A stretch of 64,000 bases of DNA from NCBI RefSeq assembly GCF_058153355.1, contig NZ_CM177019.1; one strand, 5' to 3'. This document shows, piece by piece, positions 10,922 through 64,000 of this stretch. Position numbers and translations under genes: made by a program. The notes beneath the pieces were generated by a model. The model did no database searches. It was not told the origin of the DNA and saw nothing but the letters and a program-made list of their open reading frames with translations. The first letter of the stretch is position 1. Each line of letters starts with the position of its first letter.

Positions 10922-11013
10922 AGTGAACTCTGCAACGAGTGGCAAAGATCCACGGTAAGCTCGCGCCTGAGGGCTGTCTATGATGGTAGATTTTTTTAGG
11001 AATATATAAAGAC

Positions 11014-11035
11014 AAAGGCACCCGCAGGTGCCTTT
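11014..11035 (-). terminator. cycA rho-independent terminator
   Basis: aaaggcacc / ggtgccttt stem with 4-nt loop, T-run on the minus strand immediately after. Confidence 0.55.
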
Positions 11036-11054
11036 CAGAGTTATAAACGCGGCA

Positions 11055-14874: not shown

Positions 14875-15085
14875 TCCGCTTCCCCACGTCTTCTTCGTGA
14901 TGACTATCTTAACCCGATTTGTTAGAAGCTCCACTAAAATGGCTAAAAACTCGCAATTTCATCGGGTTATCAAATGCTCTGTGATCATTATCGCATATCA
15001 ACCAACTAGATGGTTGATCTTTCTTGCCACACATTGCAAGCTAATCGTCACTTAAGGAAATAATATTCAAAAAGAGGGTTATTGT

Positions 15086-15877
15086 ATGAAGTCAACACGT
15101 CCTGTTGCTGTCATCACTGGAGCCGCACGTGGTATTGGAAAGGGCTGTGCACTGGAACTTGCGCGTGGCGGATTTAATCTGCTGATTAATGATCGTCCGG
15201 ATGCCGACAGCGTAGAAAAATTACATGCCACACAACAAGAATGTCTGGCGGAAGGCGTGGAAGTCATTTGCTTCCCTGCCGATGTCGGCGATCTCTCCTT
15301 GCATGAAGAGATGCTCGACGCGGCGCAAAACCAGTGGGGGCGTCTGGACTGCCTGCTCAATAACGCCGGGATTTCAGTGAAAAAACGCGGTGACCTCCTC
15401 GACCTCGAACCAGACAGCTTCGACCAAAACATTGCCATTAACACCCGTGCGCCGTTCTTCCTTGCTCAGGCATTCAGTAAGCGATTACTGGCACAGCCGA
15501 AACCGGAAGCAGAACTGCCGCACCGCTCGATTATTTTTGTCAGTTCCATAAACGCCATCATGCTGGCGATGAATCGCGGCGAATATACCATTGCCAAAAC
15601 TGCCGTCTCCGCCGCAGCTCGCCTGTTTGCCGCTCGCCTTTGCAATGAACAAATTGGCGTTTATGAAGTGCGCCCTGGCCTAATCAAAACCGATATGACC
15701 ATTCCGGCAACGGCTTATTACGACGAACTGATTGCTAAGGGGTTAGTGCCGTGGGGACGTTGGGGTTATCCGGCTGATATTGCCTCAACGGTCCGCGCGA
15801 TGGCGGAAGGCAAACTGATTTACACCTGTGGTCAGGCGGTCGCCATCGACGGCGGCTTAAGTATGCCGCGCTTCTGA
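15086..15877 (+). CDS. short-chain dehydrogenase/reductase (SDR)
   Basis: 263 aa; TGAARGIG cofactor motif, NNAG, catalytic YxxxK (YTIAK); AGAGGG RBS. Confidence 0.85.
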   Translation: MKSTRPVAVITGAARGIGKGCALELARGGFNLLINDRPDADSVEKLHATQQECLAEGVEVICFPADVGDLSLHEEMLDAAQNQWGRLDCLLNNAGISVKKRGDLLDLEPDSFDQNIAINTRAPFFLAQAFSKRLLAQPKPEAELPHRSIIFVSSINAIMLAMNRGEYTIAKTAVSAAARLFAARLCNEQIGVYEVRPGLIKTDMTIPATAYYDELIAKGLVPWGRWGYPADIASTVRAMAEGKLIYTCGQAVAIDGGLSMPRF

Positions 15878-15886
15878 GGCTGAATC

Positions 15887-16729
15887 ATGAGAGATCTGTT
15901 ACAACGCCCGGATTTATTCAGTATCAATACTGCGACACTGGGCTATAAAACACCGCTACCTGCCATTATTGATGCCTGCGCCGCACGCGGTATTGGCGCG
16001 ATTGCCCCCTGGCGCAGGGAGTTACAGGGTGAAGATCTCCAACAAATCGCCCGCCAGCTTGCTGCCAGTAACATGAGCGTTTCCGGTTTGTGCCGTAGCA
16101 CCTATTACACCGCGCCGACGCTGACGGAACGCAAACTGGCGATTGATGATAACCGCCGGGCGCTGGACGACGCCGCTGTACTGAACGCCGCCTGTTATAT
16201 GCAGGTGGTTGGCGGTCTGCCAATGGGAACAAAAGATCTGTACGAAGCGCGGGAACAGGTGAAACAAGGGATTCGCCAGTTGCTGCCACATTCGAAAGAT
16301 GTCGGCGTACCAATTGCGCTGGAGCCGCTACACCCGATGACCGCCGCCGATCGCTCTTGCCTGTGCACGTTACGTCAGGCGCTGGACTGGTGTGATGAAC
16401 TCGATCCCGATGGGGAGTTTGGCCTCGGCGTGGCGGTGGATGTTTATCACGTCTGGTGGGACCCGGATCTCGCCAGTCAGATCCTGCGTGCCGGAAAGCG
16501 CATCCTCGCGTTTCATGTTTCCGACTGGCTGGTGCCAACCACCGATTTAGTCAATGACCGGGGAATGCCGGGAGATGGCGTAATCAATATTCCGTCTATT
16601 CGTCGCCAGGTAGAAAATGCCGGATTTAACGGTGCTATTGAACTGGAAATATTCTCACCGTACTGGTGGCAAAAAGATATTAACAGCACACTGGATATTA
16701 GCGTCGATCGCATCGCGCATTATTGCTAA
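15887..16729 (+). CDS. sugar phosphate isomerase/epimerase-like TIM-barrel protein
   Basis: 280 aa; overall resemblance to xylose-isomerase-like TIM-barrel enzymes (IALEPLHP, AFHVSD); 9-nt gap to upstream gene. Confidence 0.6.
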   Translation: MRDLLQRPDLFSINTATLGYKTPLPAIIDACAARGIGAIAPWRRELQGEDLQQIARQLAASNMSVSGLCRSTYYTAPTLTERKLAIDDNRRALDDAAVLNAACYMQVVGGLPMGTKDLYEAREQVKQGIRQLLPHSKDVGVPIALEPLHPMTAADRSCLCTLRQALDWCDELDPDGEFGLGVAVDVYHVWWDPDLASQILRAGKRILAFHVSDWLVPTTDLVNDRGMPGDGVINIPSIRRQVENAGFNGAIELEIFSPYWWQKDINSTLDISVDRIAHYC

Positions 16730-16732
16730 GGA

Positions 16733-17515
16733 ATGATCATGAGTGACCAACCCGTTCTGTTCAGCAGAGCGGCGGCTTCCTGCCGCCTGACATTGAACCG
16801 TGAAGATAAATGTCATGCTATTAATGAAGAAATGATCGAATCTCTCGACCATTATTTAAATGAAATTGAAAACGACACCACATTACGATTAGTCGAATTA
16901 ACGGCAACCGGCGATAAATTCTTTTGTGCAGGCGGCGATATTAAATCGTGGTCAGCCTATTCGCCATTAGATATGGGCAGAAAATGGATTAAACGCGGCA
17001 ATGACGTTTTTAATCGCCTGCGCAACTTACCCCAATTAACCGTTGCGAATCTCAACGGTCATACCATCGGCGGCGGTATTGAACTTGCCTTGTGCTGTGA
17101 TATTCGTATTGCCCGCCCCGGCGCGAAATTCTCTAACCCGGAAGTGATGCTCGGCATGGTACCTGGCTGGATGGGCATTGAACGCGTGCTTAATCAGGTC
17201 GGTCCGGTGGTCGGTCGCCAGATGCTGATGCTGGGTAAACGCCTGACGGCGCAGGAAGCTCAGGCGGCGAATTTAATTGATGAAGTGGTAGAAAAAGAAC
17301 AGGTGGAAAGCTGGATGGCGAATCAGTTAGCGCAACTGGAAAAATGTGGTCCGGTAGCGCTGGCACATATTAAGCAACTGATTCTGGCGCTGGAAAATAA
17401 ACACGCCGATTACCCGCACCAGTTACTGGCTGGATTAATGTCCGCCACTCAGGATTGCCAGCAGGCGACGCGCGCATTTGCCGAAAAAGCCAGCGTGAGC
17501 TTCCATAATCAATAA
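16733..17515 (+). CDS. enoyl-CoA hydratase/isomerase (crotonase family)
   Basis: 260 aa; FFCAGGDIKSW and GHTIGGGIELALCCDIRIA crotonase-fold motifs. Confidence 0.8.
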   Translation: MIMSDQPVLFSRAAASCRLTLNREDKCHAINEEMIESLDHYLNEIENDTTLRLVELTATGDKFFCAGGDIKSWSAYSPLDMGRKWIKRGNDVFNRLRNLPQLTVANLNGHTIGGGIELALCCDIRIARPGAKFSNPEVMLGMVPGWMGIERVLNQVGPVVGRQMLMLGKRLTAQEAQAANLIDEVVEKEQVESWMANQLAQLEKCGPVALAHIKQLILALENKHADYPHQLLAGLMSATQDCQQATRAFAEKASVSFHNQ

Positions 17516-17524
17516 GGAAATTGT

Positions 17525-19066
17525 ATGCGTAAGATAACAACCGCCGAGACACTGGCGGCGCAAATTCAGGACGGCGCAACCATTGCCATTAGCGGTAATG
17601 GCGGTGGCATGGTGGAAGCGGACCATATTCTGGCTGCTATTGAAGCGCGTTTCCTGCAAACCGGACACCCGCGCGATCTGACATTAATCCACTCACTGGG
17701 CATTGGCGATCGCGACTGCAAAGGCACTAACCGCTTCGCTCATGCAGATATGCTCAAACGCATCATTGCCGGACATTTTACCTGGTCGCCCAAGATGCAG
17801 GATCTGGTGAAAAACAATGCTATTGAAGCCTACTGCTTCCCTGGTGGCGTAATTCAGGCACTGCTGCGGGAGATCGGTGCCGGACGTCCAGGGCTTTTTA
17901 CCCACGTTGGGCTGGGATCGTTTGTTGATCCGCGCAACGGCGGCGGTAAGTCGAACGCCAGCACCACTGAGGATCTGGTAGAACTGATTGAAATCGACGG
18001 TGAAACCAAACTTCGTTATCGCCCTTTCAAAGTGGACTACGCGATTTTGCGTGGCACTTATGCCGATCCGCGTGGCAACGTCAGCCTCGAAGAAGAGGCG
18101 ATTGATATGGATAGCTATTCCATGGCGCTGGCAGCACACAACAGCGGCGGCAAAGTGTTCGTACAGGTGCGCGATGTGCTGGAAGCTGGTGCCATTGAAC
18201 CACGCCGGGTCAAATTACCGGGCATTCTGGTTGATGGCATCGTTGAACACCGCGAACAACCGCAAACCTATCTTGGCGGTTACGACCTGACCATCAGCGG
18301 TCAGCATCGCCGTCTAAGTTCTAACGACGCTATTGAACTGGTTAGTCATCCGGTGCGCCGCCTGATTGCCCGTCGGGCAGCACGCGAACTGGTGGCTGGC
18401 GCTTCAACCAACTTTGGCTTTGGTATTCCGGGCGGTATTCCAGGAGTAGCGCTGCGCGAAGGCGTGCCTTATCAAAGTTTATGGCTGAGCGTAGAACAGG
18501 GCGTACATAACGGCATGATGCTGGATGATGCTCTGTTCGGCTGCGCCCGTAACGCCGATGCCATTATTCCATCACTCGATCAATTCGAATTCTACAGTGG
18601 CGGAGGGATCGATATCACCTTCCTCGGCATGGGAGAGATGGATCAGTACGGTAACGTCAACGTCTCCCATCTCAATGGCAATCTCATTGGCCCCGGCGGA
18701 TTTCTCGAAATTGCGCAAAACGCCCGTAAAGTGGTGTTCTGCGGCACGTTCGACGCCAAAGGTAGCAAGATTGATGTAACACCAGATGGCTTGCATATTG
18801 CCCAGTCAGGTCAAATCCCTAAACTGGTTACCCAGGTGGAAAAAATCACTTTTAGCGCCGCCTACGCACAGCAAAGCGGTCAGGAAGTGTTGTATATCAC
18901 TGAACGTGCAATATTCCAGTTAACGGCAGAAGGCGTTGAATTAATTGAAATCGCACCAGGTGTGGAGATTGAGCGCGACATTCTGCCATATATGGCTTTC
19001 CGTCCAATTATCAATCAGCCACGCCTGATGGAAAGTAGCCTGTTTACGCCGATGGAGGATGCATGA
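17525..19066 (+). CDS. family I CoA-transferase, fused A/B subunits (YdiF-like)
   Basis: 513 aa; two-domain CoA-transferase architecture; stop overlaps next start (ATGA). Confidence 0.7.
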   Translation: MRKITTAETLAAQIQDGATIAISGNGGGMVEADHILAAIEARFLQTGHPRDLTLIHSLGIGDRDCKGTNRFAHADMLKRIIAGHFTWSPKMQDLVKNNAIEAYCFPGGVIQALLREIGAGRPGLFTHVGLGSFVDPRNGGGKSNASTTEDLVELIEIDGETKLRYRPFKVDYAILRGTYADPRGNVSLEEEAIDMDSYSMALAAHNSGGKVFVQVRDVLEAGAIEPRRVKLPGILVDGIVEHREQPQTYLGGYDLTISGQHRRLSSNDAIELVSHPVRRLIARRAARELVAGASTNFGFGIPGGIPGVALREGVPYQSLWLSVEQGVHNGMMLDDALFGCARNADAIIPSLDQFEFYSGGGIDITFLGMGEMDQYGNVNVSHLNGNLIGPGGFLEIAQNARKVVFCGTFDAKGSKIDVTPDGLHIAQSGQIPKLVTQVEKITFSAAYAQQSGQEVLYITERAIFQLTAEGVELIEIAPGVEIERDILPYMAFRPIINQPRLMESSLFTPMEDA

Positions 19067-21135
19067 GTCAGCTTGATGACACCCTCCTTGATGCGCTGAC
19101 GCACGTCACTTTCCCGAAGGGTTTTGTGTCAGCAGAGCCAGCGTCAATTGTCACGGTTGAAGATGTCGATTACCCGATCTGGCAAGTTGATGCGCTAGTC
19201 GTTGGTAGCGGCGCGGCAGGGCTGCGCGCAGCGGTTGAACTTAAGCGCCGCCAGCAAAATGTGCTGATCGCCTCCGCCGGGTTATATATGGGGACATCGG
19301 CATGTTCTGGTTCCGATAAACAGACGCTGTTTACCGCCGCTACCGCGGGCAACGGCGATAACTTCGCCAAACTGGCGGAAGCACTGGCGAGCGGTGGGGC
19401 GATGGATCACGACACCGCTTATGTCGAAGCGGTAGGTTCTCTGCACACTCTTGGCGGGTTGCAATATCTTGGTCTGGAATTACCGGAAGATCGCTATGGC
19501 GCAATTCTTCGTTATCAAACCGACCATGACGAAGCCGGGCGAGCAACCTCGTGTGGGCCGCGTACTTCTCGCCTAATGGTGAAAGTATTGCTGGAGGAAG
19601 TGCAGCGTCTTGCCATACCACTACTGACCAGTGCAACGGTGATTAAGCTCCTGCATCAGCACGGAGAGAATGGCGAAGATCGCGTTGCGGGGGCTATTCT
19701 CGCAACCGGTTCCCGCGCCTATAACCCCTGGGGGCTGGCTATTGTGACGGCGCCCAATGTGGTACTGGCAACGGGCGGACCGGGCGAGCTTTATCGCGAC
19801 AGTGTTTATCCACATAAATGCTTCGGCTCGCTGGGACTGGCACTGGAAGAAGGTTTGACGCTAACCAATCTGACCGAAAGCCAGTTTGGTATAGGCACGC
19901 CGCGCAGCACGTTTCCGTGGAATTTGTCCGGCACCTATGTACAGGTGATCCCATATATCTATTCCGTGGATGCCGGGGGCAACGAGTATAACTTCCTCGC
20001 AGATTACTATCGCACCACCCAGGAGCTGGCTTCAAACATCTTCCGTAAAGGCTATCAGTGGCCGTTTCACGCCACACGAGTGATGGATTTTGGCTCCAGC
20101 TTGTTAGATATGGCAGTAGCGCAAGAGCAGCAATCAGGACGTCAGGTATTTATGGATTTCAATCGCAATCCTGAACCTGTGCCGGGTGACCTGCCGTTCT
20201 CATTAGATCGACTGGACGACGACGTTCGCGCGTATCTGGAAAATAACGACGCTCTGGCACCATCGCCCATCGAACGACTGCAACGAATGAATCCGCTGTC
20301 TATCTCGCTGTATAAGATGCACGGTTACGATCTCACCACGCAGCCATTGCAGTTTGCCATGAATAATCAGCATATAAATGGCGGCATTGAAGTGGATATC
20401 TGGGGGCAAACCTCCCTGCCCGGATGTTTCGCCGTGGGGGAAGTTGCTGGCACACACGGCGTCACTCGCCCTGGTGGTGCGGCATTGAATGCCGGGCAGG
20501 TTTTTGCTGTTCGTCTGGCACGTTTTATTGGTTGCACGCAAAAACGTAATATTGATGGAGATATAGCACAGCTGGTAGCTCCGGCACTGGCTTCTATAAG
20601 AGAGATCATTACTCAGGCGCACGATAACGGGACCGGGATGCCGTTGTCGGTTGTGAGGGAAAAAATTCAGGCACGAATGTCTGACTACGCGGGATTTATT
20701 TGCCATGCCGATAAAGTCCGACGCGCCACTCGTGATGCCCTGCTATTGAACGAATTTGTGCAACGGCATGGATTGGCAATCAAACATGTGGGTGAAGTTG
20801 CCGAGCTATTTATGTGGCGGCATATGGCGCTGACTTCTGCCGCGGTATTAACACAATTAACGCATTATATTGATGCTGGTGGTGGTAGCCGTGGGGCGCG
20901 TATGGTTATTGATCCACAAGGCAAATGCCTACCACAAACTCGTCGCGGCGCAAAAGAAGAATGGCGTTTTCGCTCTGAACTCGCTGAAGACAAAAATCAC
21001 AAATTAACAATTCAATATTCGCAAGGTTCTTTTATTACCGAAGTAAAGTCTTTACGTATGCAACCGTGTATTAACGGTATTTACTTTGAAAAAAACTGGC
21101 CAGACTTTTTAAAGGGAGACATTTACACACAGTAA
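19063..21135 (+). CDS. FAD-dependent oxidoreductase, fumarate reductase/succinate dehydrogenase flavoprotein-like
   Basis: 690 aa; N-terminal dinucleotide fold VVGSGAAGLRAAVEL; second FAD-contact motif GCFAVGEVAGTHG; long C-terminal extension. Confidence 0.7.
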   Translation: MSQLDDTLLDALTHVTFPKGFVSAEPASIVTVEDVDYPIWQVDALVVGSGAAGLRAAVELKRRQQNVLIASAGLYMGTSACSGSDKQTLFTAATAGNGDNFAKLAEALASGGAMDHDTAYVEAVGSLHTLGGLQYLGLELPEDRYGAILRYQTDHDEAGRATSCGPRTSRLMVKVLLEEVQRLAIPLLTSATVIKLLHQHGENGEDRVAGAILATGSRAYNPWGLAIVTAPNVVLATGGPGELYRDSVYPHKCFGSLGLALEEGLTLTNLTESQFGIGTPRSTFPWNLSGTYVQVIPYIYSVDAGGNEYNFLADYYRTTQELASNIFRKGYQWPFHATRVMDFGSSLLDMAVAQEQQSGRQVFMDFNRNPEPVPGDLPFSLDRLDDDVRAYLENNDALAPSPIERLQRMNPLSISLYKMHGYDLTTQPLQFAMNNQHINGGIEVDIWGQTSLPGCFAVGEVAGTHGVTRPGGAALNAGQVFAVRLARFIGCTQKRNIDGDIAQLVAPALASIREIITQAHDNGTGMPLSVVREKIQARMSDYAGFICHADKVRRATRDALLLNEFVQRHGLAIKHVGEVAELFMWRHMALTSAAVLTQLTHYIDAGGGSRGARMVIDPQGKCLPQTRRGAKEEWRFRSELAEDKNHKLTIQYSQGSFITEVKSLRMQPCINGIYFEKNWPDFLKGDIYTQ

Positions 21136-21227
21136 TTTTCAATATTTACTCTGTACCTGATTTTTATTGCCTATTACATGGAAATACCAACAACCAGGGT
21201 TTATTAATATAATTAAAAGGTTTAAAA

Positions 21228-22505
21228 ATGAATAAAATAAAGAATTATCGATGGCATATGATTGCCCTCGTATGCTTTATCACTGTAATCAATTATCTGG
21301 ACAGAACGGCGTTAGGTATTGCGGCTCCAACGATTATGGAGACAACCGGAATAACCAAAGAACAATATTCATGGATTGTCAGTGCATTCCAGTTGGCCTA
21401 TACATTGGGGCAACCGGTAATGGGCTTCTTTATTGATACCGTGGGTCTGAAGTTAAGTTTTGCGATATGTGCCGCAATCTGGGGCCTGGCGACAATGGGG
21501 CATGCCTTGACAGGAACATGGTCAGGTCTGGCATTTATGCGCGCCCTGATGGGTTTCAGCGAAGCATCGGCAATTCCTGCGGGTGTAAAAACCGCATCAA
21601 CATGGTTCCCGGCAAAAGAGCGTGGCGTGGCGACAGGTGTTTTCAATATGGGCACCTCACTCGGCGCGATGCTTGCTCCACCGTTGATTGCCTGGTGCAT
21701 TATGTTTCATAGCTGGCAATTTGCGTTTATTGTCTCAGGTAGCCTTGCTTTACTCGCGGCTTTATTTTGGTTCTTTTGTTATAAAGATCCAAAAGATGCT
21801 AAACGCCTTTCTGATGAAGAGCGCCACTATATTGAGTCTGGGCAAGAACAGCATCTTAAAACAGATAAGAAAGAAAAAACGTCAATCAAGCATATCCTCA
21901 GCCAACGTAATTTCTGGGGGATTGGCATCGCGCGTTTTCTCGCTGACCCGGCATGGGGAACCATTAACTTCTGGGTACCGATTTTCTTCGTCGAAACGCT
22001 GCATTTTAGCCTGAAAGAAATTGCCATGTTCGTCTGGCTGCCTTTCCTGCTGGGCGATCTCGGCTGTTTAGCCAGTGGTTTTGTCGCGAAGTTCTTCCAC
22101 GATCGCGGCGTGAGTTTAATTAACTCACGAAGAATTACCTTCACTATTGCAGCCGTCATTATGATGACGATTGGTCTGGTGAGTATTGTCGAAAATCCCT
22201 ACATCGCCGTATTACTGATTAGCATTGGCGCATTCTCGCATCAATGTCTTTCTACTGTAGCAGCAACTCTGGGCGGTGACCTATTCAAAAAAGACGAAGT
22301 AGCTACCGCAGTGGGTATGGCAGGAGCCTGTGCGTGGAGCGGTCAGTTGATTTTCAACCTGTTCATCGGGGCATTCGTTCACATTATCGGCTTCGCGCCG
22401 TTCTTTATTGCCCTGGCTTTCTTTGACATTATTGGTGCTATTGCGTTGTGGACGCTTATCAAAGTTAAAGATGAAGAACCACAAGTACAGTTAGCTACCC
22501 ACTAA
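21228..22505 (+). CDS. MFS transporter, anion:cation symporter type (hexuronate/galactonate-like)
   Basis: 425 aa, about 12 TM; N-terminal motifs (NYLDRTALGIAAP) typical of ExuT/DgoT/GudP-like acid-sugar permeases. Confidence 0.7.
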   Translation: MNKIKNYRWHMIALVCFITVINYLDRTALGIAAPTIMETTGITKEQYSWIVSAFQLAYTLGQPVMGFFIDTVGLKLSFAICAAIWGLATMGHALTGTWSGLAFMRALMGFSEASAIPAGVKTASTWFPAKERGVATGVFNMGTSLGAMLAPPLIAWCIMFHSWQFAFIVSGSLALLAALFWFFCYKDPKDAKRLSDEERHYIESGQEQHLKTDKKEKTSIKHILSQRNFWGIGIARFLADPAWGTINFWVPIFFVETLHFSLKEIAMFVWLPFLLGDLGCLASGFVAKFFHDRGVSLINSRRITFTIAAVIMMTIGLVSIVENPYIAVLLISIGAFSHQCLSTVAATLGGDLFKKDEVATAVGMAGACAWSGQLIFNLFIGAFVHIIGFAPFFIALAFFDIIGAIALWTLIKVKDEEPQVQLATH

Positions 22506-34922: not shown

Positions 34923-36548
34923 TTATAAACATACTCCCCCCGTCGCCCGCAGCAATAAATCATTCTGGATCTGCTCTGACAACCGCACGCCGCCGCGCGT
35001 ATCAAACATCATCTGACACCACGCCTGCGCCATTGGCGGAGAGGCATATTTCAACATTTGCGCGCCGCAACCCAGCAGGAATAGCTGACGAGTAATCTCT
35101 CGCCCCATTTCTTCAGCTGGCTTACGCAGTTGCTGCTGCAAACGACGAACCGCGCGATCAAAATAGCGATCCTGCCCTTTCACTTCCATAAACGCTTCCG
35201 ACAGTAAGTCGTATACACCCGCCTGCTTATTAAGAACGCGCAATACATCCAGGCACATAATATTGCCAGAACCTTCCCAGATGCTGTTCACCGGCATTTC
35301 CCTGTAAAGCCGCGGCAGCTCGCTCTCCTCGCAATAACCAATACCGCCCAGCACCTCCATCGCTTCGGCCACAAACGGCATACCACGTTTGCAGATCACA
35401 AATTTCGCCGCAGGCGTAAATAAACGCGCCCACAGGGCTTCTTTGGCATCGGCACGCCGGTCCCACGCTCGCGCAAGACGAAACAGCAACGCCGTTTGAC
35501 CTTCAAGCTGAAGTGCCATGCGACTTAAGACATGACGCATAAGGGGTTGTTGGATCAATGGATTACCAAAAACATGGCGTTGATGGGCATGATAAATCGC
35601 CAGCGAAAATGCACGGCGCATCATGGCATGGCTACCCAGGGCGCAATCAAAACGCGTCATCCCACCCATTTTCAGGATCAGACGAACTCCTTCCCCTTCC
35701 TGCCCCAACAACCAGCCAATGGCATCCTGAAACTCCACTTCGCAGCTGGCGTTAGAGCGATTACCCAGCTTATCTTTCAGCCGCTCGAGGCGAATCGCGT
35801 TGCGTTGCCCGTCAGGCAAAAAGCGCGGCACAAAAAAGCAGGACAAACCGCCCGTAGTCTGCGCCAGCACCAGATGCGCATCGCTTTGCGGCACCGAGAA
35901 AAACCATTTATGCCCCACCAGCCGATAAGAGCCATCTTCCAGTCGCTCTGCGCGGGTGGTGTTGCTCATGACATCGGAACCGCCCTGCTTTTCCGTCATT
36001 CCCATGCCAATCAACAAACCGCGTTTTTGCCCACCTGGCAATAAGTGAGAATCGTAGCGATCGCTCAACAGCGGCGTGGTCCAGTCCTGAAACGGAGCGG
36101 GTAACATCTGTAATAACAATGGCGTGGCGGCAAAGGTCATCGTTATCGGGCATAACGACCCAGCCTCAACCTGTGCGTGCAACATAAAACGCGCCGCGCG
36201 CGCCACAAATGCGCCGGAGCGAGCGTCTTCTTCCCAGGCCAGATTGTGTACCCGATTGGTACATAACGCCTGCATCAGCAGGTGCCAGGCGGGGTGAAAA
36301 CGCACATCGTCCAGACGGCGTCCTTGCGCATCGTAGCGCAATAATTCGGGCGGATTCACATTCGCCAGTCGCCCCAGTTCAAGGGATTCAGCCGTTCCTA
36401 ACTGCTGACCAATACTGGCGAGAAAATCGCTATCCCAGCCAGCACCTTCACGCGTTACCGCTTCGCAGAGCGCGCCATCAGACAGGTATAAGTTGCTGTT
36501 ATTTAATGGTATAGGTTGATTAAAAACGGTGTGAGTTTGCCAGTGCAC
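34923..36548 (-). CDS. aidB: adaptive-response acyl-CoA dehydrogenase-like protein AidB
   Basis: 541 aa from GTG start (VHWQTHTVFNQP); ACAD fold. Confidence 0.9.
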   Translation of the reverse strand: MHWQTHTVFNQPIPLNNSNLYLSDGALCEAVTREGAGWDSDFLASIGQQLGTAESLELGRLANVNPPELLRYDAQGRRLDDVRFHPAWHLLMQALCTNRVHNLAWEEDARSGAFVARAARFMLHAQVEAGSLCPITMTFAATPLLLQMLPAPFQDWTTPLLSDRYDSHLLPGGQKRGLLIGMGMTEKQGGSDVMSNTTRAERLEDGSYRLVGHKWFFSVPQSDAHLVLAQTTGGLSCFFVPRFLPDGQRNAIRLERLKDKLGNRSNASCEVEFQDAIGWLLGQEGEGVRLILKMGGMTRFDCALGSHAMMRRAFSLAIYHAHQRHVFGNPLIQQPLMRHVLSRMALQLEGQTALLFRLARAWDRRADAKEALWARLFTPAAKFVICKRGMPFVAEAMEVLGGIGYCEESELPRLYREMPVNSIWEGSGNIMCLDVLRVLNKQAGVYDLLSEAFMEVKGQDRYFDRAVRRLQQQLRKPAEEMGREITRQLFLLGCGAQMLKYASPPMAQAWCQMMFDTRGGVRLSEQIQNDLLLRATGGVCL

Positions 36549-36631
36549 TGTGTCTCCCTCCATCAATGGCAGTCACCATTAGTATGGTCACTGCCACGGA
36601 TTCCTGACAGAAAGAGATTGCTAAAACATTC

Positions 36632-38861: not shown

Positions 38862-39521
38862 TTAACCAATAATATGAAGTGATGTCAGTGGGATATCAAC
38901 ACCCAGTGCGCGCGAAAATAACCACTCCGGCTCGCCGAGATCGTTAAAAGATTCCTCACCATTTAACAGCAAATATTCACAGGTATCTTCGGTCACCTGC
39001 CGTTCATAGCCCATGGTAAAATTATGCACTTCCCATTTGGCGTGGTTTTGATTTTCAACTTTTTCCAGCATATAGACGGGTTCGATATTCCCCGGTTCTT
39101 CGCTGTTAAAAAATCGCTGCCAGCGTTTTTCCTGCCAGTTTAAAGTCATTGCCCCCATCGCTTTGGCGTTGATCGCTTCGCGCCAGTGGCTCTCTTTGCT
39201 GATACCGTAGCTCTCTTCATAGACAAAGAGTTTTATATCATCAATGTCATCAATATCTTCGCCGCCGGTGGTATTGATTTGCAGAAATTCATCGCCCGAA
39301 GTGTAGTAGCGGAAAATCTGACTACCGCCGCCCAGATCGATGTGGCTGACAGCGGCTACCGTAAATTCTTCACCCGGCAGCGCAATCAGCAATTCATCTT
39401 CCAGCAAACAAAACGCTAACGTGTCGAGCGTAAAGCCGCTATTGAGATGAAGTCCCAGCGGGCCACGTGCGATTACAGGTTTATCATCCTTACCAAACAG
39501 ATGCTTGAAAAAACTTGTCAT
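38862..39521 (-). CDS. yjfK: uncharacterized protein YjfK
   Basis: 219 aa; start ATG overlaps upstream channel-gene stop (ATGA). Confidence 0.85.
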   Translation of the reverse strand: MTSFFKHLFGKDDKPVIARGPLGLHLNSGFTLDTLAFCLLEDELLIALPGEEFTVAAVSHIDLGGGSQIFRYYTSGDEFLQINTTGGEDIDDIDDIKLFVYEESYGISKESHWREAINAKAMGAMTLNWQEKRWQRFFNSEEPGNIEPVYMLEKVENQNHAKWEVHNFTMGYERQVTEDTCEYLLLNGEESFNDLGEPEWLFSRALGVDIPLTSLHIIG

Positions 39522-40588
39522 ATGCTTCCCTCAATGTCCTGCCATGCCACTTCTTCAGCCAAAATACGGTTATTGCCAATAAGATGCAGCCACATACCGC
39601 CTTTAACTTCCGTTGCAATGACTGGATTCAGTTCCATTCCCCTACCATTTTTACAGCTGCTTATTCCCAGGACGGTGGCATCATGATGAAGTTTCATATA
39701 ATGCATCAATGCGCCATAACGCATTGAGGTAACCCGTTCAGGAATCGGTAAAACAAACCCCGTATCCCCCAGCATTGGATTCATAATCGATGCCACTGAT
39801 TGAGATGAACCGGGATCTTGTATTGAACGGGAAAGTTGTTCTGCTGAAATATTTCGCACTATTTCAATACGTTGACAATGAACCTCTAATAAACGAGCGT
39901 AGCGTTCATCTTCCAGATAAGCGACGATATGGCATCTTTCAGGAATAAAATCCGCCAGGGATAGTGCGGTCGTGAACGTCTGCTCATCAGTTTGCGAAAA
40001 GATGATGACACTTTGGCAATTTGCCAGTCCCATGCGGGTATGTTCATGCGGATCATTAAAATTACTAATACGAATGAAATCGACCCAATTATTTCCAGGC
40101 ATCGGATGTTGAATATCATCCCGCTCACACAAAAGTACCCGGCCAAATGCTCTTCGGGCATCAAACAACAATAATGAAATCATCTTTTCAGTCTGATGCC
40201 CGCGCCATCCAATGACCAGCATATGGTTGCGCAAATTGCTGTAGTCGCCCATTCCCGTCATTCCTTTCGCCAATATGTCTTGCACTAATGCAATGACTTT
40301 TCCCATTAAAGCGCCAAATAAACCAACACTCACAGGAATTTGCCAGAGCGCTGTGAACAGACGTCCCCCCACCGTTTGGGGTGTGATATCACCAAACCCC
40401 AGCGTTGATCCCACAACCGAGCAGTAATAAATAAAATTACTCAGTTGACCTACCAACGCCTCTTCATGCAACGCAGTTAACACCAGATAACAAAACAGAT
40501 ACTGTCCTGTAAATAATCCAGTCAATGCCGGCCAGGTAAGCCTGGAAAGGTGACGTCGGCAGGTTTTAATGATCCAGGAGAAGAACAT
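39518..40588 (-). CDS. 2-TM P-loop potassium-channel-like protein with C-terminal RCK-like domain
   Basis: 356 aa; TM1 (LTGLFTGQYLFCYLVLTAL), pore helix plus filter-like TLGFGD, TM2 (LFTALWQIPVSVGLFGALMG), then Rossmann-like HMLVIGWRGH...; start overlaps yjfJ stop (TAATG), stop overlaps yjfK start (ATGA). Confidence 0.75.
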   Translation of the reverse strand: MFFSWIIKTCRRHLSRLTWPALTGLFTGQYLFCYLVLTALHEEALVGQLSNFIYYCSVVGSTLGFGDITPQTVGGRLFTALWQIPVSVGLFGALMGKVIALVQDILAKGMTGMGDYSNLRNHMLVIGWRGHQTEKMISLLLFDARRAFGRVLLCERDDIQHPMPGNNWVDFIRISNFNDPHEHTRMGLANCQSVIIFSQTDEQTFTTALSLADFIPERCHIVAYLEDERYARLLEVHCQRIEIVRNISAEQLSRSIQDPGSSQSVASIMNPMLGDTGFVLPIPERVTSMRYGALMHYMKLHHDATVLGISSCKNGRGMELNPVIATEVKGGMWLHLIGNNRILAEEVAWQDIEGSI

Positions 40589-41286
40589 TACTCGCCCTGT
40601 TGGCGTTGCAGTCTTGCTAATACATCCTGGGCGCTACTTTTGTTGCTACCGCCAATTCCGGCTTCCGCCAGTTTTTCATCAAGATCGCGACCATCTGCCA
40701 CTTTTTCCAGCTGTGCGGCAGCATCCAGGCGAGCTTGACGTTCGGCCTGACGCGTTTGCAGACGCTTTAAGGATTCTGCCGCTGTCGAAACGCTGGAAGA
40801 TGCGCCAACAGTAGAGGTCGTTACGGCCTGTTGTGCACGCTGCATGGCTTCAGTAGCTTTAACGACTTCCATTTGTTGCTCAAATTGAGCGATACTCTGT
40901 GCTGTCGCTGTAACCGCTTTTTCCACACCATCGCGAGAGACTTCCAGATTCGACAACACTTGCTCTTCAGCGGTAATGACATTCTCAAGACGGGCGATTT
41001 CTTCAGCAACTTCGTTAATCAACGACGGATTAACATTCTTGCTTAACGCTTCCAGCGCGCGAGCTTCCAGACTGGCTTTACGCTCACGTAAATCTTTCAG
41101 TTTATCGTTGCTCAATTTCACTCTTGCCAGTAGATCGACACGTGATTTACCGGCCTTATCCAGTTCTGCTTTGGCATCGCGTATATGCTGTTCAAGCATT
41201 CTAACGCCCTGTGCTTCTTCAATGGATTCTTCCGCTTGCGAGATCACCGATTTACCCAGCGTAAATAAAGTTTTTAAAATTCCCAT
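40588..41286 (-). CDS. yjfJ: PspA/IM30-family protein
   Basis: 232 aa, coiled-coil. Confidence 0.88.
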   Translation of the reverse strand: MGILKTLFTLGKSVISQAEESIEEAQGVRMLEQHIRDAKAELDKAGKSRVDLLARVKLSNDKLKDLRERKASLEARALEALSKNVNPSLINEVAEEIARLENVITAEEQVLSNLEVSRDGVEKAVTATAQSIAQFEQQMEVVKATEAMQRAQQAVTTSTVGASSSVSTAAESLKRLQTRQAERQARLDAAAQLEKVADGRDLDEKLAEAGIGGSNKSSAQDVLARLQRQQGE

Positions 41287-45224: not shown

Positions 45225-45650
45225 TCACTCCACCAGCAATAATTTATAAAGCGGTTGATTCTCTTCAACCAAATCGGCAAGCGTGTAGTTATCCAGTTCC
45301 GTAAGAAAACTTTGCACGGCCTTAGAAAGTGCCTGTTTCAACCGACAGGCAGGTGTAATGTGGCAAAACTCACTGCTGCAATTCACCAGCGATAAAGGTT
45401 CCAGCTCGCGCACCACATCACCAATACGTATCGCACTCGCCGGTTTCCCCAGGCGAATGCCGCCATTTTTTCCACGAACAGCAGTCACGTAGCCGGCACG
45501 ACTAAGTTGATTGATTATTTTGACCATATGATTACGGGAGACGCCGTAGACGTCAGTCACTTCAGAAATACTGGTCATCCGCCCTTCTGGCAATGACGCC
45601 ATGTAGATCAGCGCACGTAATCCGTAATCAGTGAAACTCGTTAACTGCAC
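45225..45650 (-). CDS. nsrR: NO-sensing Rrf2-family repressor
   Basis: 141 aa; N-terminal HTH, three C-terminal Cys. Confidence 0.93.
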
Positions 45651-49887: not shown

Positions 49888-51168
49888 TTAGATCAAGTAA
49901 TCGATCAACGCCGGTTCTTGTTTGCAGAGGCGACGCCAGTCAACGATCGGCATACGAACTTGCAGACTTACGCTGCCGTCCTCCTCCATCCACTCTTTTT
50001 CTATTGCCTGAAGCTGATAAAAACGACTTCTCAGACGCCCTTCCTGCGGCGGCAGACGCAATGTATGCTGCGCCACCTCGCCGGAAAGCCGCTCCGTCAA
50101 AGCCTGAAAAAGCTGTGGTATCCCCGCTCCGGTCTGCGCAGAAAGCCAGACACGGATCGGTTTGTTCTCTTCGTCCCGATCAATACGCGGTTCAAAATCT
50201 TCCAGCATATCGATCTTGTTCATCACCAGCAGGGTTGGGATCTCGTGAGCATCGATCTCTTCAAGAACCGTATTCACCGCTTCGATGTTTTCTTGTACTC
50301 GCACATCTGCCGCGTCAATGACGTGCAGCAGCAATGTGGCTTGCCGCGTCTCTTGTAACGTGGCTTTAAATGCCGCCACCAGATCGTGCGGCAGGTGGCG
50401 AATAAACCCTACGGTATCTGCCAGCACGGTTTCACCGACATCCGCGACGTCAATACGCCGCAACGTCGGGTCGAGGGTGGCAAACAACTGGTCTGCCGCA
50501 TAGACCCGCGCTTCGGTGATGCGATTGAAAAGGGTAGATTTACCGGCGTTGGTATATCCCACCAGCGAAACAGTAGGAACGTCGGCTTTGATACGCGATT
50601 GCCGCCCCTGCTCACGCTGTTTTTCAACTCTTTCCAGGCGCGACTGTATCTGCACGATGCGATTACGCAACAAACGACGGTCGGTTTCGAGCTGGGTTTC
50701 ACCCGGACCACGCAAACCGATCCCGCCTTTCTGTCTTTCAAGGTGGGTCCAGCCACGCACCAGGCGCGTAGCCAGATGGCGCAACTGCGCCAGCTCAACC
50801 TGCAACTTACCCTCATGGGTACGCGCACGTTGGGCGAAAATATCTAAAATAAGGCCGGTGCGGTCGATAACACGACACTCGCACAAACGCTCCAGGTTAC
50901 GCTCTTGCGCCGGGCTCAGGGCATGGTCAAAAAGAACGACCGAAGCACCCGTCGCTTTGACAGCTTCCGCAATTTCAACTGCTTTACCTTCACCTACAAA
51001 ATACTTTGGGTGCGGCGCTTTACGGCTACCGGTAATCACCTGCAATGCTTCGACACCGGCGGAAGAAACCAGAGATTCAAACTCCTGGAGGTCTTCCATA
51101 TCTTTGTCTTGCGTAAAATAGATGTGTACCAGTACCGCCTGCTCACCAGCATCATAACGGTCAAACAA
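49888..51168 (-). CDS. hflX: ribosome-associated GTPase HflX
   Basis: 426 aa; G1 motif [12 protein letters not shown]. Confidence 0.95.
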
Positions 51169-59172: not shown

Positions 59173-59258
<86 letters not shown>

Positions 59259-59293
59259 TTGGGTGGTCTGTGCTTTGCAGCACTTTCAAATTT

Positions 59294-59369
<76 letters not shown>

Positions 59370-59526
59370 TTAATCTTCGTCTTTCGAACCGCTACTGCCT
59401 TGGCTGCCTTCACTCACCTTAGTCACTTACTTTTGTAAGCTCCCAAGGATTCGTTCAGTTGCCGCCTTGTCGCAATTCGAAATACTGCGATTGGGTGGTC
59501 TGTGCTTTGCAGCACTTTTCAAATTT

Positions 59527-59602
<76 letters not shown>

Positions 59603-59812: not shown

Positions 59813-60358
59813 TTACAGCTTGATAAAATGCTCGCGGTAGTAAGCCAGTTCTGCCACCGACTCACGGATATCATCCATCGCCTGATGCGTCCCCTGCTTG
59901 GTAAAGCCGTCAAGAATTTCCGGCTTCCAGCGGCGCGCCAGCTCTTTCAGTGTGCTGACATCCAGATAACGGTAGTGGAAGTAGGCTTCCAGCTCCGGCA
60001 TGTATTTAAACAGGAAGCGACGATCCTGGCCGATGCTGTTACCGCAAATCGGCGATTTTCCCGCAGGCACCCACTGTTTTAAGAATTCGAGCGTTGCCAG
60101 TTCAGCTTCACGATCGCCCATTGTGCTCGCTTTCACGCGCTCCACCAGCCCGCTGGCGGTATGGGTGCGCACGTTCCAGTCATCCATCAGCGCCAGCTGT
60201 TCATCAGACTGGTGTACTGCAATGGTCGGCCCTTCTGCCAGAATATTCAGGTTGGCATCGGTCACCAGCGTGGCAATCTCAATAATGCGATCGCGCTCGG
60301 GATCCAGACCGGTCATCTCAAGATCGATCCAAATCAGGTTGTTTTCATTGGCACTCAT
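59813..60358 (-). CDS. orn: oligoribonuclease
   Basis: 181 aa from [23 protein letters not shown]; DEDDh exonuclease. Confidence 0.95.
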
Positions 60359-60452
60359 GCTATTTTCCACCCATTCACAGTGACTATATTGATCCACAAT
60401 TGCGTGTATCATAGATGTTTTGCCCATCAGGGGCGACCAGGAGTCAGTACGA

Positions 60453-61505
60453 TTGAGTAAAAATAAACTCTCCAAAGGCCAGCAGCGCCGCGTGAACGCC
60501 AATCACCAGCGTCGTCTTAAAACGTCTAAGGAGAAGCCCGACTACGACGACAATCTGTTTGGCGAGCCTGATGAAGGTATCGTCATCAGCCGCTTTGGTA
60601 TGCACGCTGATGTGGAATCCGCCGATGGCGACGTTCACCGCTGCAATATTCGCCGTACCATCCGTTCGCTGGTGACCGGCGATCGCGTAGTCTGGCGTCC
60701 GGGTAAACCGGCGGCGGAAGGCGTAAATGTCAAAGGGATCGTGGAAGCGGTGCATGAGCGCACCTCGGTGTTAACGCGCCCGGATTTCTACGACGGTGTG
60801 AAACCCATTGCTGCCAACATCGACCAGATTGTCATTGTCTCCGCGATTTTGCCGGAGCTGTCGCTCAATATTATCGACCGTTACCTGGTGGCCTGCGAAA
60901 CCTTGCAGATTGAGCCGATTATTGTGCTCAACAAGATAGACCTGCTGGACGACGAAGGCATGGAATTCGTCAACGAGCAGATGGATATCTACCGCAATAT
61001 CGGTTATCGCGTATTGATGGTTTCCAGTCATACTCAGGATGGACTGAAACCGCTGGAAGAGGCGTTGACCGGGCGCATCAGTATTTTTGCCGGGCAGTCT
61101 GGCGTCGGCAAATCCAGCCTGCTGAACGCGTTGCTGGGGCTGCAAAAAGAGATCCTGACCAACGACGTCTCGGATAACTCGGGGCTTGGTCAGCACACCA
61201 CGACTGCCGCGCGGCTGTATCACTTCCCGCACGGCGGTGATGTGATTGATTCCCCAGGTGTGCGTGAGTTTGGTCTCTGGCATCTGGAACCGGAACAAAT
61301 TACTCGGGGTTTTGTCGAATTCCATGACTACTTAGGTCTGTGTAAATATCGCGATTGCAAACACGATACCGATCCGGGCTGCGCTATCCGGGAAGCGGTT
61401 GAGGAAGGGAAAATCGCGGAAACCCGTTTCGAAAACTATCACCGTATTCTGGAAAGCATGGCGCAGGTAAAAACGCGTAAAAACTTTTCTGATACGGATG
61501 ACTGA
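60453..61505 (+). CDS. rsgA: ribosome small-subunit biogenesis GTPase RsgA
   Basis: 350 aa from apparent TTG start ([13 protein letters not shown]); G motifs NKIDLL and [13 protein letters not shown]-terminal zinc-binding Cys. Confidence 0.92.
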
Positions 61506-61601
61506 CAATTAAGCTAACCGTCGTTAGAATCGTCCCCTTTTTTTCAGGATCCGGCATGTAGGCCGGATCAGGAACGACAAAACAATGGCCTGGAGGCTAC
61601 C

Positions 61602-62570
61602 TTGTTAAATTCATTTAAACTTTCGCTACAGTACATTCTGCCGAAATTATGGCTTACTCGCCTGGCGGGTTGGGGCGCAAGCAAGCGGGCAGGATGGCTG
61701 ACAAAACTGGTTATCGATCTGTTCGTTAAATACTACAAGGTCGACATGAAAGAGGCGCAAAAGCCGGACACCGCCAGCTACCGCACCTTTAATGAATTCT
61801 TTGTCCGTCCGCTGCGTGACGAAGTACGCCCAATTGATACCGATCCTAATGTACTGGTCATGCCTGCCGATGGCGTTATCAGCCAGTTAGGTAAAATCGA
61901 AGAAGATAAAATCCTGCAAGCTAAAGGCCACAACTACAGCCTCGAAGCTCTGCTGGCAGGGAACTATCTGATGGCGGATCTTTTCCGTAACGGTACGTTT
62001 GTGACCACTTACCTCTCCCCGCGTGACTACCACCGCGTGCACATGCCGTGCAACGGTATTCTGCGTGAGATGATCTATGTGCCGGGCGATCTCTTCTCCG
62101 TTAACCATCTCACCGCTCAGAACGTGCCGAATCTGTTTGCCCGTAACGAACGCGTGATCTGCCTGTTCGATACCGAATTTGGCCCGATGGCGCAGATTCT
62201 GGTCGGGGCGACGATTGTTGGCAGCATTGAAACTGTCTGGGCGGGCACCATTACGCCGCCGCGCGAAGGCATCATCAAGCGCTGGACCTGGCCTGCCGGA
62301 GAAAACGACGGTTCAGTGGCGCTGCTGAAAGGCCAGGAAATGGGTCGCTTTAAACTCGGCTCTACCGTTATCAACCTGTTTGCACCGGGTAAAGTTAATC
62401 TGGTTGAGCAACTGGAAAGCCTGTCTGTCACGAAAATTGGTCAGCCGCTGGCAGTATCTACCGAAACCTTTGTTGCGCCAGACGCAGAACCTGCCCCGCT
62501 TCCTGCTGAAGAGATCGAGGCAGAACACGACGCCAGCCCATTGGTTGACGACAAAAAAGACCCGGTCTAA
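61602..62570 (+). CDS. psd: phosphatidylserine decarboxylase proenzyme
   Basis: 322 aa; first codon in this frame is TTG; LGST cleavage motif (FKLGSTVI). Confidence 0.95.
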
Positions 62571-62591: not shown

Positions 62592-64000
62592 GTGCGCCTG
62601 ATTATCACTTTTCTGATGGCCTGGTGCCTCAGTTGGGGGGCGTACGCCGCGACGGCCCCCGATAGTAAACAAATCACCCAGGAACTGGAGCAGGCAAAAG
62701 CGGCGAAACCCGCGCAGCCGGAAGTCGTAGAGGCACTCCAGTCCGCCTTAAATGCGCTTGAGGAACGAAAAGGTTCCCTTGAGCGCATCAAGCAATATCA
62801 AGAAGTCATTGATAATTACCCGAAACTTTCCGCTACTCTGCGCGCGCAATTAAACAACATGCGTGACGAGCCGCGCAGCGTATCGCCGGGAATGTCTACC
62901 GACGCGCTGAATCAGGAAATTCTCCAGGTCAGCAGTCAGTTACTGGATAAGAGCCGTCAGGCCCAGCAAGAGCAGGAGCGCGCCCGCGAGATTGCCGATT
63001 CGCTGAATCAACTGCCGCAACAGCAAACTGACGCCCGCCGCCAGTTGAATGAAATCGAGCGCCGCCTTGGAACGCTTACCGGCAATACCCCGCTTAATCA
63101 GGCGCAAAATTTTGCTTTGCAGTCTGACTCTGCGCGACTGAAGGCGCTCGTTGATGAACTGGAACTGGCACAGCTGTCTGCCAATAACAGGCAAGAATTA
63201 GCGCGCTTGCGCTCAGAGCTGGCAGAAAAAGAGAGCCAACAGCTGGATGCATATTTGCAGGCCTTGCGTAATCAGTTGAACAGCCAACGCCAGCTTGAGG
63301 CGGAGCGGGCGCTGGAAAGTACCGAATTGCTGGCAGAAAACAGCGCCGATTTGCCGAAAGATATCGTCGCGCAATTCAAAATTAACCGCGAGCTGTCGGC
63401 GGCGTTGAATCAACAGGCGCAGCGGATGGATCTCGTTGCCTCGCAACAGCGTCAGGCTGCCAGCCAGACGTTACAGGTCCGGCAGGCGTTGAATACGCTG
63501 CGTGAACAATCACAATGGCTGGGATCGTCCAACCTGCTCGGTGAAGCGTTGCGGGCGCAGGTGGCACGGCTACCGGAAATGCCGAAACCACAACAGCTTG
63601 ATACCGAAATGGCGCAGTTGCGTGTGCAACGGTTACGTTATGAGGATCTGCTCAATAAACAGCCGCTGCTACGGCAAATCCATCAGGCAGACGGTCAGCC
63701 GCTGACCGCCGAGCAAAACCGTATTCTGGAAGCACAGCTACGCACTCAGCGTGAGTTGCTGAACTCATTGTTGCAGGGTGGCGACACGTTACTGCTGGAG
63801 CTGACCAAGCTGAAAGTCTCCAACGGGCAACTGGAAGATGCGCTGAAAGAAGTGAATGAAGCGACGCACCGCTACCTGTTCTGGACTTCTGACGTGCGCC
63901 CGATGACCATCGCCTGGCCGCTGGAGATCGCTCAGGATCTGCGTCGTCTCATTTCGCTGGACACCTTCAGTCAGTTGGGCAAAGCCAGCGTAATGATGCT
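62592..64000 (+). CDS. mscM: mechanosensitive channel MscM (YjeP), 5' partial, continues past window end
   Basis: GTG start; signal peptide then long Gln/Leu-rich coiled-coil domain; open frame to end of window so absent from the ORF track. Confidence 0.85.
   Translation, partial: MRLIITFLMAWCLSWGAYAATAPDSKQITQELEQAKAAKPAQPEVVEALQSALNALEERKGSLERIKQYQEVIDNYPKLSATLRAQLNNMRDEPRSVSPGMSTDALNQEILQVSSQLLDKSRQAQQEQERAREIADSLNQLPQQQTDARRQLNEIERRLGTLTGNTPLNQAQNFALQSDSARLKALVDELELAQLSANNRQELARLRSELAEKESQQLDAYLQALRNQLNSQRQLEAERALESTELLAENSADLPKDIVAQFKINRELSAALNQQAQRMDLVASQQRQAASQTLQVRQALNTLREQSQWLGSSNLLGEALRAQVARLPEMPKPQQLDTEMAQLRVQRLRYEDLLNKQPLLRQIHQADGQPLTAEQNRILEAQLRTQRELLNSLLQGGDTLLLELTKLKVSNGQLEDALKEVNEATHRYLFWTSDVRPMTIAWPLEIAQDLRRLISLDTFSQLGKASVMM

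Follow-up and report, generated by a model that had tools for sequence, protein, structure and literature searches.

Conserved TTG start codons of the adjacent genes rsgA and psd in a segment of the Escherichia coli chromosome

At gene starts, UUG and GUG are decoded by the initiator fMet-tRNA, the protein still begins with (f)Met, and IF3 discriminates against start codons other than AUG. In infC, the gene for IF3, the non-AUG start makes translation sensitive to this discrimination. Li and Dowhan (1988) reportedly found that the beta subunit of Psd begins with a blocked (formyl)methionine. The AUU start of infC is mentioned in a report that also gives E. coli gene starts as 83% AUG, 14% GUG and 3% UUG, puts the frequency of TTG starts in well-annotated genomes at 4.35%, and quotes reporter assays in which expression from GTG or TTG reached 10-100% of that from AUG (bioRxiv 10.1101/063800). 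An ~8- to 12-fold lower expression from GTG or TTG than from ATG has also been described (PMC11445065). The same study deals with carbohydrate regulators of the Enterobacteriaceae, whose translation from near-cognate starts is lower than from ATG and was read as selected tuning of expression. Of the two genes considered here, psd forms an operon with mscM. Two promoters in the 3' end of rsgA drive this operon, one dependent on sigma-E and the other, P2, a basal promoter activated by CpxR. A distance of 41 nt separates the CpxR box from the P2 transcription start site downstream of it, and mutation of the box alters Lys340 of RsgA (PMC8138132).

The DNA analysed here (the window, 64,000 nucleotides of contig NZ_CM177019.1, assembly GCF_058153355.1) comes from the E. 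coli chromosome and matches ~4.386-4.439 Mb of MG1655, read in the opposite direction. Its genes run from ytfJ to a 5'-terminal portion of mscM, with rsgA and psd at the right end, as follows.

59183-59602, minus strand: three tRNA-Gly(GCC) genes
59813-60358, minus strand: orn
60453-61505, plus strand: rsgA coding sequence (RefSeq annotation), 350 aa plus TGA, GTPase of 30S-subunit biogenesis
61602-62570, plus strand: psd coding sequence (RefSeq annotation), 322 aa plus TAA, phosphatidylserine decarboxylase proenzyme
62592 onwards, plus strand: mscM, cut by the end of the window

MG1655 carries the same genes, rsgA as b4161 (NP_418585.4) and psd as b4160 (NP_418584.1), in the same order orn, rsgA, psd, mscM. 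Its TTG starts stand at the homologous positions, with 99% identity over 100 nt around each start, and the RsgA proteins differ by a few amino acids (position 171, Ala/Glu; position 285, Gln/Arg). The 2.4-kb surroundings of rsgA and psd were found in 5425 of 5426 complete E. coli genomes, at 95-99% identity to the window in 5404 and at 99% or more in only 18; at this locus the lineage of the window is ~97% identical to most E. coli. The closest RefSeq genome is NZ_ABACVG020000001.1 (hereafter H1; annotated by PGAP), which is 99.6% identical. Colinearity of H1 with the entire window was considered and rejected, as it breaks at the cycA-ytfE island.

The original prediction held that rsgA and psd start with TTG and that mscM and aidB start with GTG, and it proposed comparison with curated E. 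coli annotation and an analysis of ribosome-binding-site spacing as checks. To map curated starts, we took the starts of the 69 coding sequences annotated in the matching part of K-12 (NC_000913.3) and located them in the window; 54 matched, 53 of them cleanly. The non-ATG start codons are these.

60453-60455, plus strand: TTG start of rsgA, read directly, followed by AGT AAA AAT AAA CTC (SKNKL)
61602-61604, plus strand: TTG start of psd, read directly, followed by TTA AAT TCA TTT AAA (LNSFK)
62592-62594, plus strand: GTG start of mscM, followed by RLIITFLMAWC
36546-36548, minus strand: GTG start of aidB (curated), with a competing in-frame ATG at 36561-36563
51166-51168, minus strand: TTG start of hflX
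45648-45650, minus strand: GTG start of nsrR

The MG1655 and PGAP coding sequences of rsgA, psd and mscM begin exactly on these TTG and GTG codons and not on in-frame ATGs elsewhere, and the MG1655 start of aidB falls on the GTG at 36548. All four predicted starts were thereby confirmed, with the caveat that aidB has an in-frame ATG five codons upstream. The PGAP starts of rsgA, psd and mscM in H1 are the identical bases, and PGAP places the aidB start of two other E. coli genomes at the same GTG. The TTG start of hflX and the GTG start of nsrR were absent from the earlier list. Among the 53 cleanly mapped genes, 47 start with ATG, three with GTG and three with TTG. On frequencies of 3% and 4.35% (bioRxiv 10.1101/063800), 1.6-2.3 TTG starts are expected, P(>=3) is 0.21-0.41, and three are within chance; adjacent TTG-TTG gene pairs are likewise expected about four times per E. 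coli genome by chance.

The TTG starts of rsgA and psd and the GTG starts of mscM and aidB are already known, being present in the curated K-12 record and in PGAP output. A literature search found no paper discussing the TTG start of psd or rsgA, or the GTG of aidB. The TRAINSPOTTER N-terminomics supplements gave no match for rsgA, psd, hflX, aidB or mscM; rsgA and psd were additionally searched there by UniProt accession, b-number and peptide string.

We then examined the reading frames and the pairing of each candidate start with the anti-Shine-Dalgarno sequence. Upstream of rsgA, a TGA at 60390 ends the frame, which is open from 60393, and the sole in-frame ATG, GTG or TTG upstream of 60453 is a TTG at 60420; the first in-frame ATG lies 49 codons downstream of the annotated start (Met50, 60600). 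For psd, a TAA at 61515 ends the frame upstream, no ATG, GTG or TTG occurs from there to 61602, and the first in-frame ATG lies 48 codons downstream (Met49, 61746). Both annotated starts have a Shine-Dalgarno sequence.

60439-60443, plus strand: rsgA Shine-Dalgarno AGGAG, core 9 nt before the TTG
61592-61596, plus strand: psd Shine-Dalgarno GGAGG, core 5 nt before the TTG

The duplex at the rsgA TTG (CAGGAGU, paired region 8 nt from the start codon) is worth -6.9 kcal/mol, compared with +0.1 for TTG 60420, -3.2 for a GTG at +13 codons and -2.1 kcal/mol for the ATG at +49. At the psd TTG the value is -9.3 kcal/mol (UGGAGGC, paired region 4 nt from the start codon), against -4.3 for a CTG at -4 and -3.7 kcal/mol for the ATG at +48. 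In both genes, the Shine-Dalgarno sequence thus lies 5-10 nt upstream of the near-cognate codon and pairs better than at the rival starts. The other genes behave similarly: mscM GTG has AAAGGAA at -5.6 kcal/mol, versus +0.6 for an ATG at +8; hflX TTG has AGAGGG at -6.3, versus -0.9 for its rival; and nsrR GTG pairs at -6.3, versus -3.3 kcal/mol for its rival. As to ribosome-binding-site spacing, Shine-Dalgarno geometry therefore favours the annotated TTG and GTG codons. In hflX, an in-frame stop stands five codons upstream of the TTG, with four sense codons between. No in-frame AUG is present upstream of rsgA, psd, mscM, hflX or nsrR, aidB with its ATG at -5 being the exception, and in these five genes a start at the nearest downstream ATG would remove residues that are conserved or, for MscM, the signal peptide. 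The Shine-Dalgarno sequences themselves are well kept: ACCAGGAG is present at rsgA in 23 of 24 aligned Enterobacteriaceae leaders, with ACCAGAGG in locus L012, and CCTGGAGGCTA at psd is invariant among aligned Enterobacteriaceae except Cedecea and Enterobacter sp. Ag1, which have CCAGGAGGCTA.

The leaders of the two genes contain further candidate elements.

60407-60412, plus strand: invariant TATCAT, a -10-like box, followed by the conserved rsgA leader
60420-60422, plus strand: upstream in-frame TTG of rsgA (-11 codons), in the stem of a predicted leader hairpin (60420-60436)
61502-61530, plus strand: sigma-70-like promoter from a sequence scan, CTGACA-17 nt-TAGAAT, overlapping the rsgA stop
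61548-61569, plus strand: hairpin of the psd 5' leader and rsgA 3' region, conserved, with a stem of 8 bp in the window

From the position of the TATCAT box, the 5' end of the rsgA mRNA would lie near 60419, which would put TTG 60420 at its very 5' end. The predicted hairpin at 60420-60436 has an invariant stem and a variable loop. The promoter-like site at 61502-61530 appears to match the position of the published psdP2, and a transcript starting there would reach the psd TTG after ~65 nt. With promoters inside the 3' end of rsgA and the TTG at this distance, psd is translated independently of coupling to rsgA. The hairpin at 61548-61569 shows compensatory double changes in four of its five core pairs (RNAalifold, 22 Enterobacteriaceae sequences). 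No covariation was seen in the Enterobacteriaceae alignments for the rsgA leader hairpin or for a small hairpin over the psd Shine-Dalgarno sequence, the stems of both being invariant. By eye, this small hairpin is not retained in Yersiniaceae.

To place the two starts in a broader context, we compared orthologous loci across genera. A Psd scan of species-representative genomes gave 80 loci with conserved synteny, which belong to Enterobacterales, Vibrionaceae and a small number of other taxa. The codon homologous to the psd start is TTG at 27 of these loci, GTG at 42 and ATG at two; seven Vibrio loci have an ATG one codon downstream of the homologous position. TTG is found in 27 of 28 Enterobacteriaceae loci, while GTG is found in Superficieibacter, Erwiniaceae, Yersiniaceae, Pectobacteriaceae, Morganellaceae, Budviciaceae and Hafniaceae, and also in Photobacterium, Aliivibrio, Grimontia, Enterovibrio and Salinivibrio. 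For rsgA, 74 orthologues could be mapped: 28 loci have TTG (Enterobacteriaceae plus Edwardsiella), 34 have GTG, and 12 Vibrionaceae loci have a GTG one codon upstream of the homologous position. No ATG start of rsgA was seen among these 74 orthologues, which come from Enterobacterales and Vibrionaceae. Across Enterobacterales, the homologous position has thus retained a near-cognate start in both genes, and the rsgA start has done so in Vibrionaceae too. The start of mscM is GTG in 38 of 46 mappable orthologous loci. We also observed that the adjacent genes rsgA and psd both switched from GTG to TTG in Enterobacteriaceae, and that mscM kept its GTG.

The pattern of substitution changes exactly at the annotated codons. 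Among 28 distinct Enterobacteriaceae sequences, the 60 nt after the rsgA TTG carry 10, 7 and 132 substitutions at the first, second and third codon positions, and the 33 nt from TTG 60420 to TTG 60453 carry 36, 38 and 23. The corresponding counts for psd, in ~28 Enterobacteriaceae, are 33, 10 and 107 downstream of the TTG and 153, 154 and 155 upstream of it. Variation dominated by the third position thus begins exactly at 60453 in rsgA and at 61602 in psd. Upstream of psd there are many indels, while CCTGGAGGCTA and the position of the start codon stay fixed. At the protein level, conservation runs from residue 2 in both RsgA and Psd across all families, with the pattern L(N/D)xxK(L/I)xLQY at the N-terminus of Psd.

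The alternatives for rsgA and psd can be weighed against these data. One places the true start of rsgA at TTG 60420, giving a 361-aa protein. The frame is open from 60393, a mechanical ORF list returns this TTG as the first start, and its equivalent is present at -11 codons in 26 of 27 mappable Enterobacteriaceae loci. However, TTG 60420 has no Shine-Dalgarno sequence, the period-3 substitution pattern is absent from 60420-60452, and the codon sits in the conserved leader hairpin stem just 3' of TATCAT; the mRNA probably begins at this codon or close to it. In locus L015, moreover, a 2-nt insertion breaks the frame between the equivalents of 60420 and 60453, and the upstream TTG is missing. 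Outside the family, 21 of the 34 GTG loci of rsgA, from other Enterobacterales families, have an in-frame TGA three codons before the homologous start, inside the Shine-Dalgarno sequence AAGTGAGG, and in two further GTG loci an in-frame TGA directly adjoins the GTG. An N-terminal extension is impossible in such loci, and we take these stops as excluding the longer reading from TTG 60420, which is very improbable overall.

A second alternative holds that the genes start at their first downstream ATGs, Met50 of RsgA and Met49 of Psd, and that the TTG N-termini are annotation artefacts. In favour of this, ATG is the canonical start codon and the most efficient one; yet neither 60600 nor 61746 has a usable Shine-Dalgarno sequence (spacers of 0-1 nt), and period-3 and protein conservation already run from the TTG onwards. 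Structural data point the same way. As expected for RsgA/YjeQ, a circularly permuted GTPase, residues 1-350 of the rsgA product align end to end with PDB 2ykr_W and 7boi_W (E ~1e-237) and likewise with 5uz4_Z (E about 1e-237), the cryo-EM structure of a 30S complex in which residues 6-339 of RsgA are modelled. The beta chain of Psd is deposited from residue 1: Psd residues 1-253 are identical to the beta chain of 7cnw_A, ending at Gly253, and the 6l06 beta chain also matches 1-253. The constructs behind these entries are recombinant, and their N-termini are not proof of the native start. We regard starts at the downstream ATGs as highly improbable. Frame content, Shine-Dalgarno pairing, comparative evidence, the onset of constraint and protein conservation together reject both the 361-aa rsgA ORF and the downstream ATGs. 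That the TTG codons are strain-specific mutations of an ancestral ATG, or sequencing errors, is an a priori suspicion, raised for a window that is ~97% identical to most E. coli genomes. K-12 has the same TTGs, as do the 99.6%-identical genome, E. albertii and ~25 further genera or species of Enterobacteriaceae, and strain ML35, 93.5% identical across the 2.4-kb query, shares the start codons of rsgA, psd and mscM. The probability of this account is negligible, and the conservation data already refute it.

For aidB, the alternative is a start at the in-frame ATG 36563, five codons upstream of the curated GTG (546 aa), or use of both sites. The ATG is in frame with the GTG without an intervening stop, it is kept in the divergent E. 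coli genomes examined and is as conserved there as the GTG (both are kept even in the most divergent match), and the version number of NP_418608.6 shows that the RefSeq record has been revised several times. On the other side, curated K-12 and PGAP both chose the GTG, and the crystallised AidB (PDB 3djl) is the 541-aa form. The GTG has the Shine-Dalgarno sequence UGGAGGG (-9.8 kcal/mol, 7-nt spacer), which overlaps ATG 36563 itself, whereas the ATG has just UGGUG at 10 nt (-2.8 kcal/mol). The GTG form of the protein begins (M)HWQTHTVFNQPIPLNNSNLYLSDGALCEAVTR (MHWQTHTVF...) and the ATG form MEGDTVHWQ.... We consider use of the ATG unlikely. Of rsgA, psd, mscM and aidB, aidB is the only gene with a real rival start, a minor ambiguity in which the GTG is favoured.

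Our preferred reading is therefore that rsgA and psd are translated from UUG, and mscM and aidB from GUG, each combining a weak codon with a well-placed Shine-Dalgarno sequence; we give this a probability of about 0.93. In rsgA and psd, the UUG would be read by initiator fMet-tRNA, with Met as the first residue of the protein. Separate promoters, located in the 3' part of rsgA, serve psd. The near-cognate start, GTG in most families, would have become TTG in both genes in Enterobacteriaceae. Synonymous neighbours are heavily substituted, and ATG occurs in 0 of 74 rsgA and 2 of 80 psd loci, from which we infer purifying selection for a weak start. Such starts most probably serve to hold down the initiation of low-abundance proteins, here a GTPase that acts in ribosome assembly and an enzyme of membrane lipids, and the combination of a weak start with a strong Shine-Dalgarno sequence may have been selected for a low, perhaps tunable, rate of synthesis.

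A more speculative proposal by analogy is that the TTG of rsgA, a gene that never starts with ATG in our set, and that of hflX act as regulatory sensors and not only as throttles. Initiation at UUG and GUG would be policed by IF3 and by 30S maturity, and synthesis of factors for 30S maturation and ribosome quality control could rise when start-codon discrimination relaxes, triggered by immature 30S subunits in the translating pool or by a low ratio of IF3 to ribosomes. This would form a homeostatic loop resembling the AUU autoregulation of infC. The hflX gene in the window, with its TTG start, encodes another ribosome-associated GTPase. The feedback idea is weakened by the finding that initiation at CUG, AUA and AGG is not raised in a delta-rsgA strain, unlike in delta-rbfA and delta-ksgA strains; UUG was not tested in that work (PMC6868393). 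We consider a sensor role improbable.

These results have little consequence beyond annotation hygiene, and the existing annotations of rsgA, psd, mscM and aidB need no change. What they add is modest: comparative evidence that fixes the rsgA start against the 11-codon-longer ORF of naive ORF calling, the retention of near-cognate starts across Enterobacterales, and a parallel change from GTG to TTG in Enterobacteriaceae. The retention of weak rsgA and psd starts well beyond E. coli suggests selection for inefficient initiation, a point of relevance when these genes are re-coded or over-expressed, for example by replacing TTG with ATG.

The closest parallel is provided by the Enterobacteriaceae carbohydrate regulators (PMC11445065), in which, as in rsgA and psd, a near-cognate start is retained across genera. 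Those regulators have experimental fitness data, whereas rsgA and psd are known here from sequence comparison; unlike theirs, the conservation of the rsgA and psd starts extends beyond the family. The comparison with infC is looser: its AUU is a much weaker, non-canonical start with demonstrated feedback, whereas UUG, as used by rsgA and psd, counts among the three standard start codons.

The leaders of psd and rsgA contain one conserved hairpin and two predicted ones:

61548-61569, hairpin in the psd 5' leader just beyond the rsgA 3' end; its stem is 8 bp long in the window
61586-61599, small hairpin UGGCC-UGGA-GGCUA, over the psd Shine-Dalgarno (SD) sequence
60420-60436, 6-bp hairpin UUGCCC-N5-GGGCGA, where the rsgA leader is predicted to begin

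The hairpin just beyond rsgA shows compensatory double changes in four of its five core pairs across Enterobacteriaceae. A T-run lies before the stem and not after it, so the element is no canonical terminator; it might act as an mRNA stabiliser or be REP-like. The small hairpin predicted over the psd SD would leave that sequence partly sequestered. Because the stems of this hairpin and of the rsgA hairpin are both invariant in Enterobacteriaceae, the rsgA loop being variable, covariation is neutral on the two structures.

At the psd locus of Proteus penneri (L065:2501-2506), an ATT stands at the position homologous to the start codon, with a TTG directly after it. The species must thus initiate psd either from ATT, a rare start, or from the TTG one codon later. 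With respect to nomenclature, PGAP labels E. coli psd (61602-62570) 'asd: archaetidylserine decarboxylase' in RefSeq genomes. This is an odd product name for a bacterial phosphatidylserine decarboxylase, and the symbol clashes with asd, the gene for aspartate-semialdehyde dehydrogenase.

Two genes, ytfH and yjfK, also departed from K-12 when its coding starts were mapped onto the window. The K-12 ytfH start falls on a non-start triplet, TGA, at about 5393, a mismatch that points to an indel or to a shift in the alignment. For yjfK, the 100 nt comprising the K-12 start and its flanks had no match whatever in the window, where the corresponding region is as follows:

~39,500-40,600, yjfK start region, between yjfL (38844) and yjfJ (41286)

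Both genes may reflect local divergence or altered starts in the lineage of the window.

Larger differences from K-12 are found at two intervals, ytfE-cycA and ytfB-yjfZ:

8238-9731, minus strand, large ORF of 497 aa, between ytfE and cycA
9764-11080, minus strand, large ORF of 438 aa, between ytfE and cycA, adjoining the 497-aa ORF
~14227-22505, accessory island of ~8 kb, between ytfB and yjfZ

The two ORFs between ytfE and cycA, both absent from K-12, are named 'hypothetical protein' in RefSeq, and searches of Pfam, PADLOC and NCBIfam returned no match for either. Of the 5426 complete E. coli genomes, no more than 270 contain their stretch at a coverage of at least 80%, and the top identity is only 94%. 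The pair is a variable accessory two-gene module. At the ytfB-yjfZ interval, K-12 carries only the ytfA pseudogene. The island of the window carries genes for a TetR-family regulator, a short-chain dehydrogenase, a xylose-isomerase-like TIM-barrel protein, an enoyl-CoA hydratase, a CoA-transferase, an FAD-binding oxidoreductase and an MFS transporter, and looks like a catabolic gene cluster.

A further difference lies in the spacer that separates the third tRNA-Gly(GCC) gene from the second, which is 157 nt long in the window (59370-59526) and 35 nt in K-12. The long form is found, at a coverage of at least 80%, in approximately 1606 of the 5426 E. coli genomes, and its sequence may resemble an ERIC/IRU intergenic repeat.
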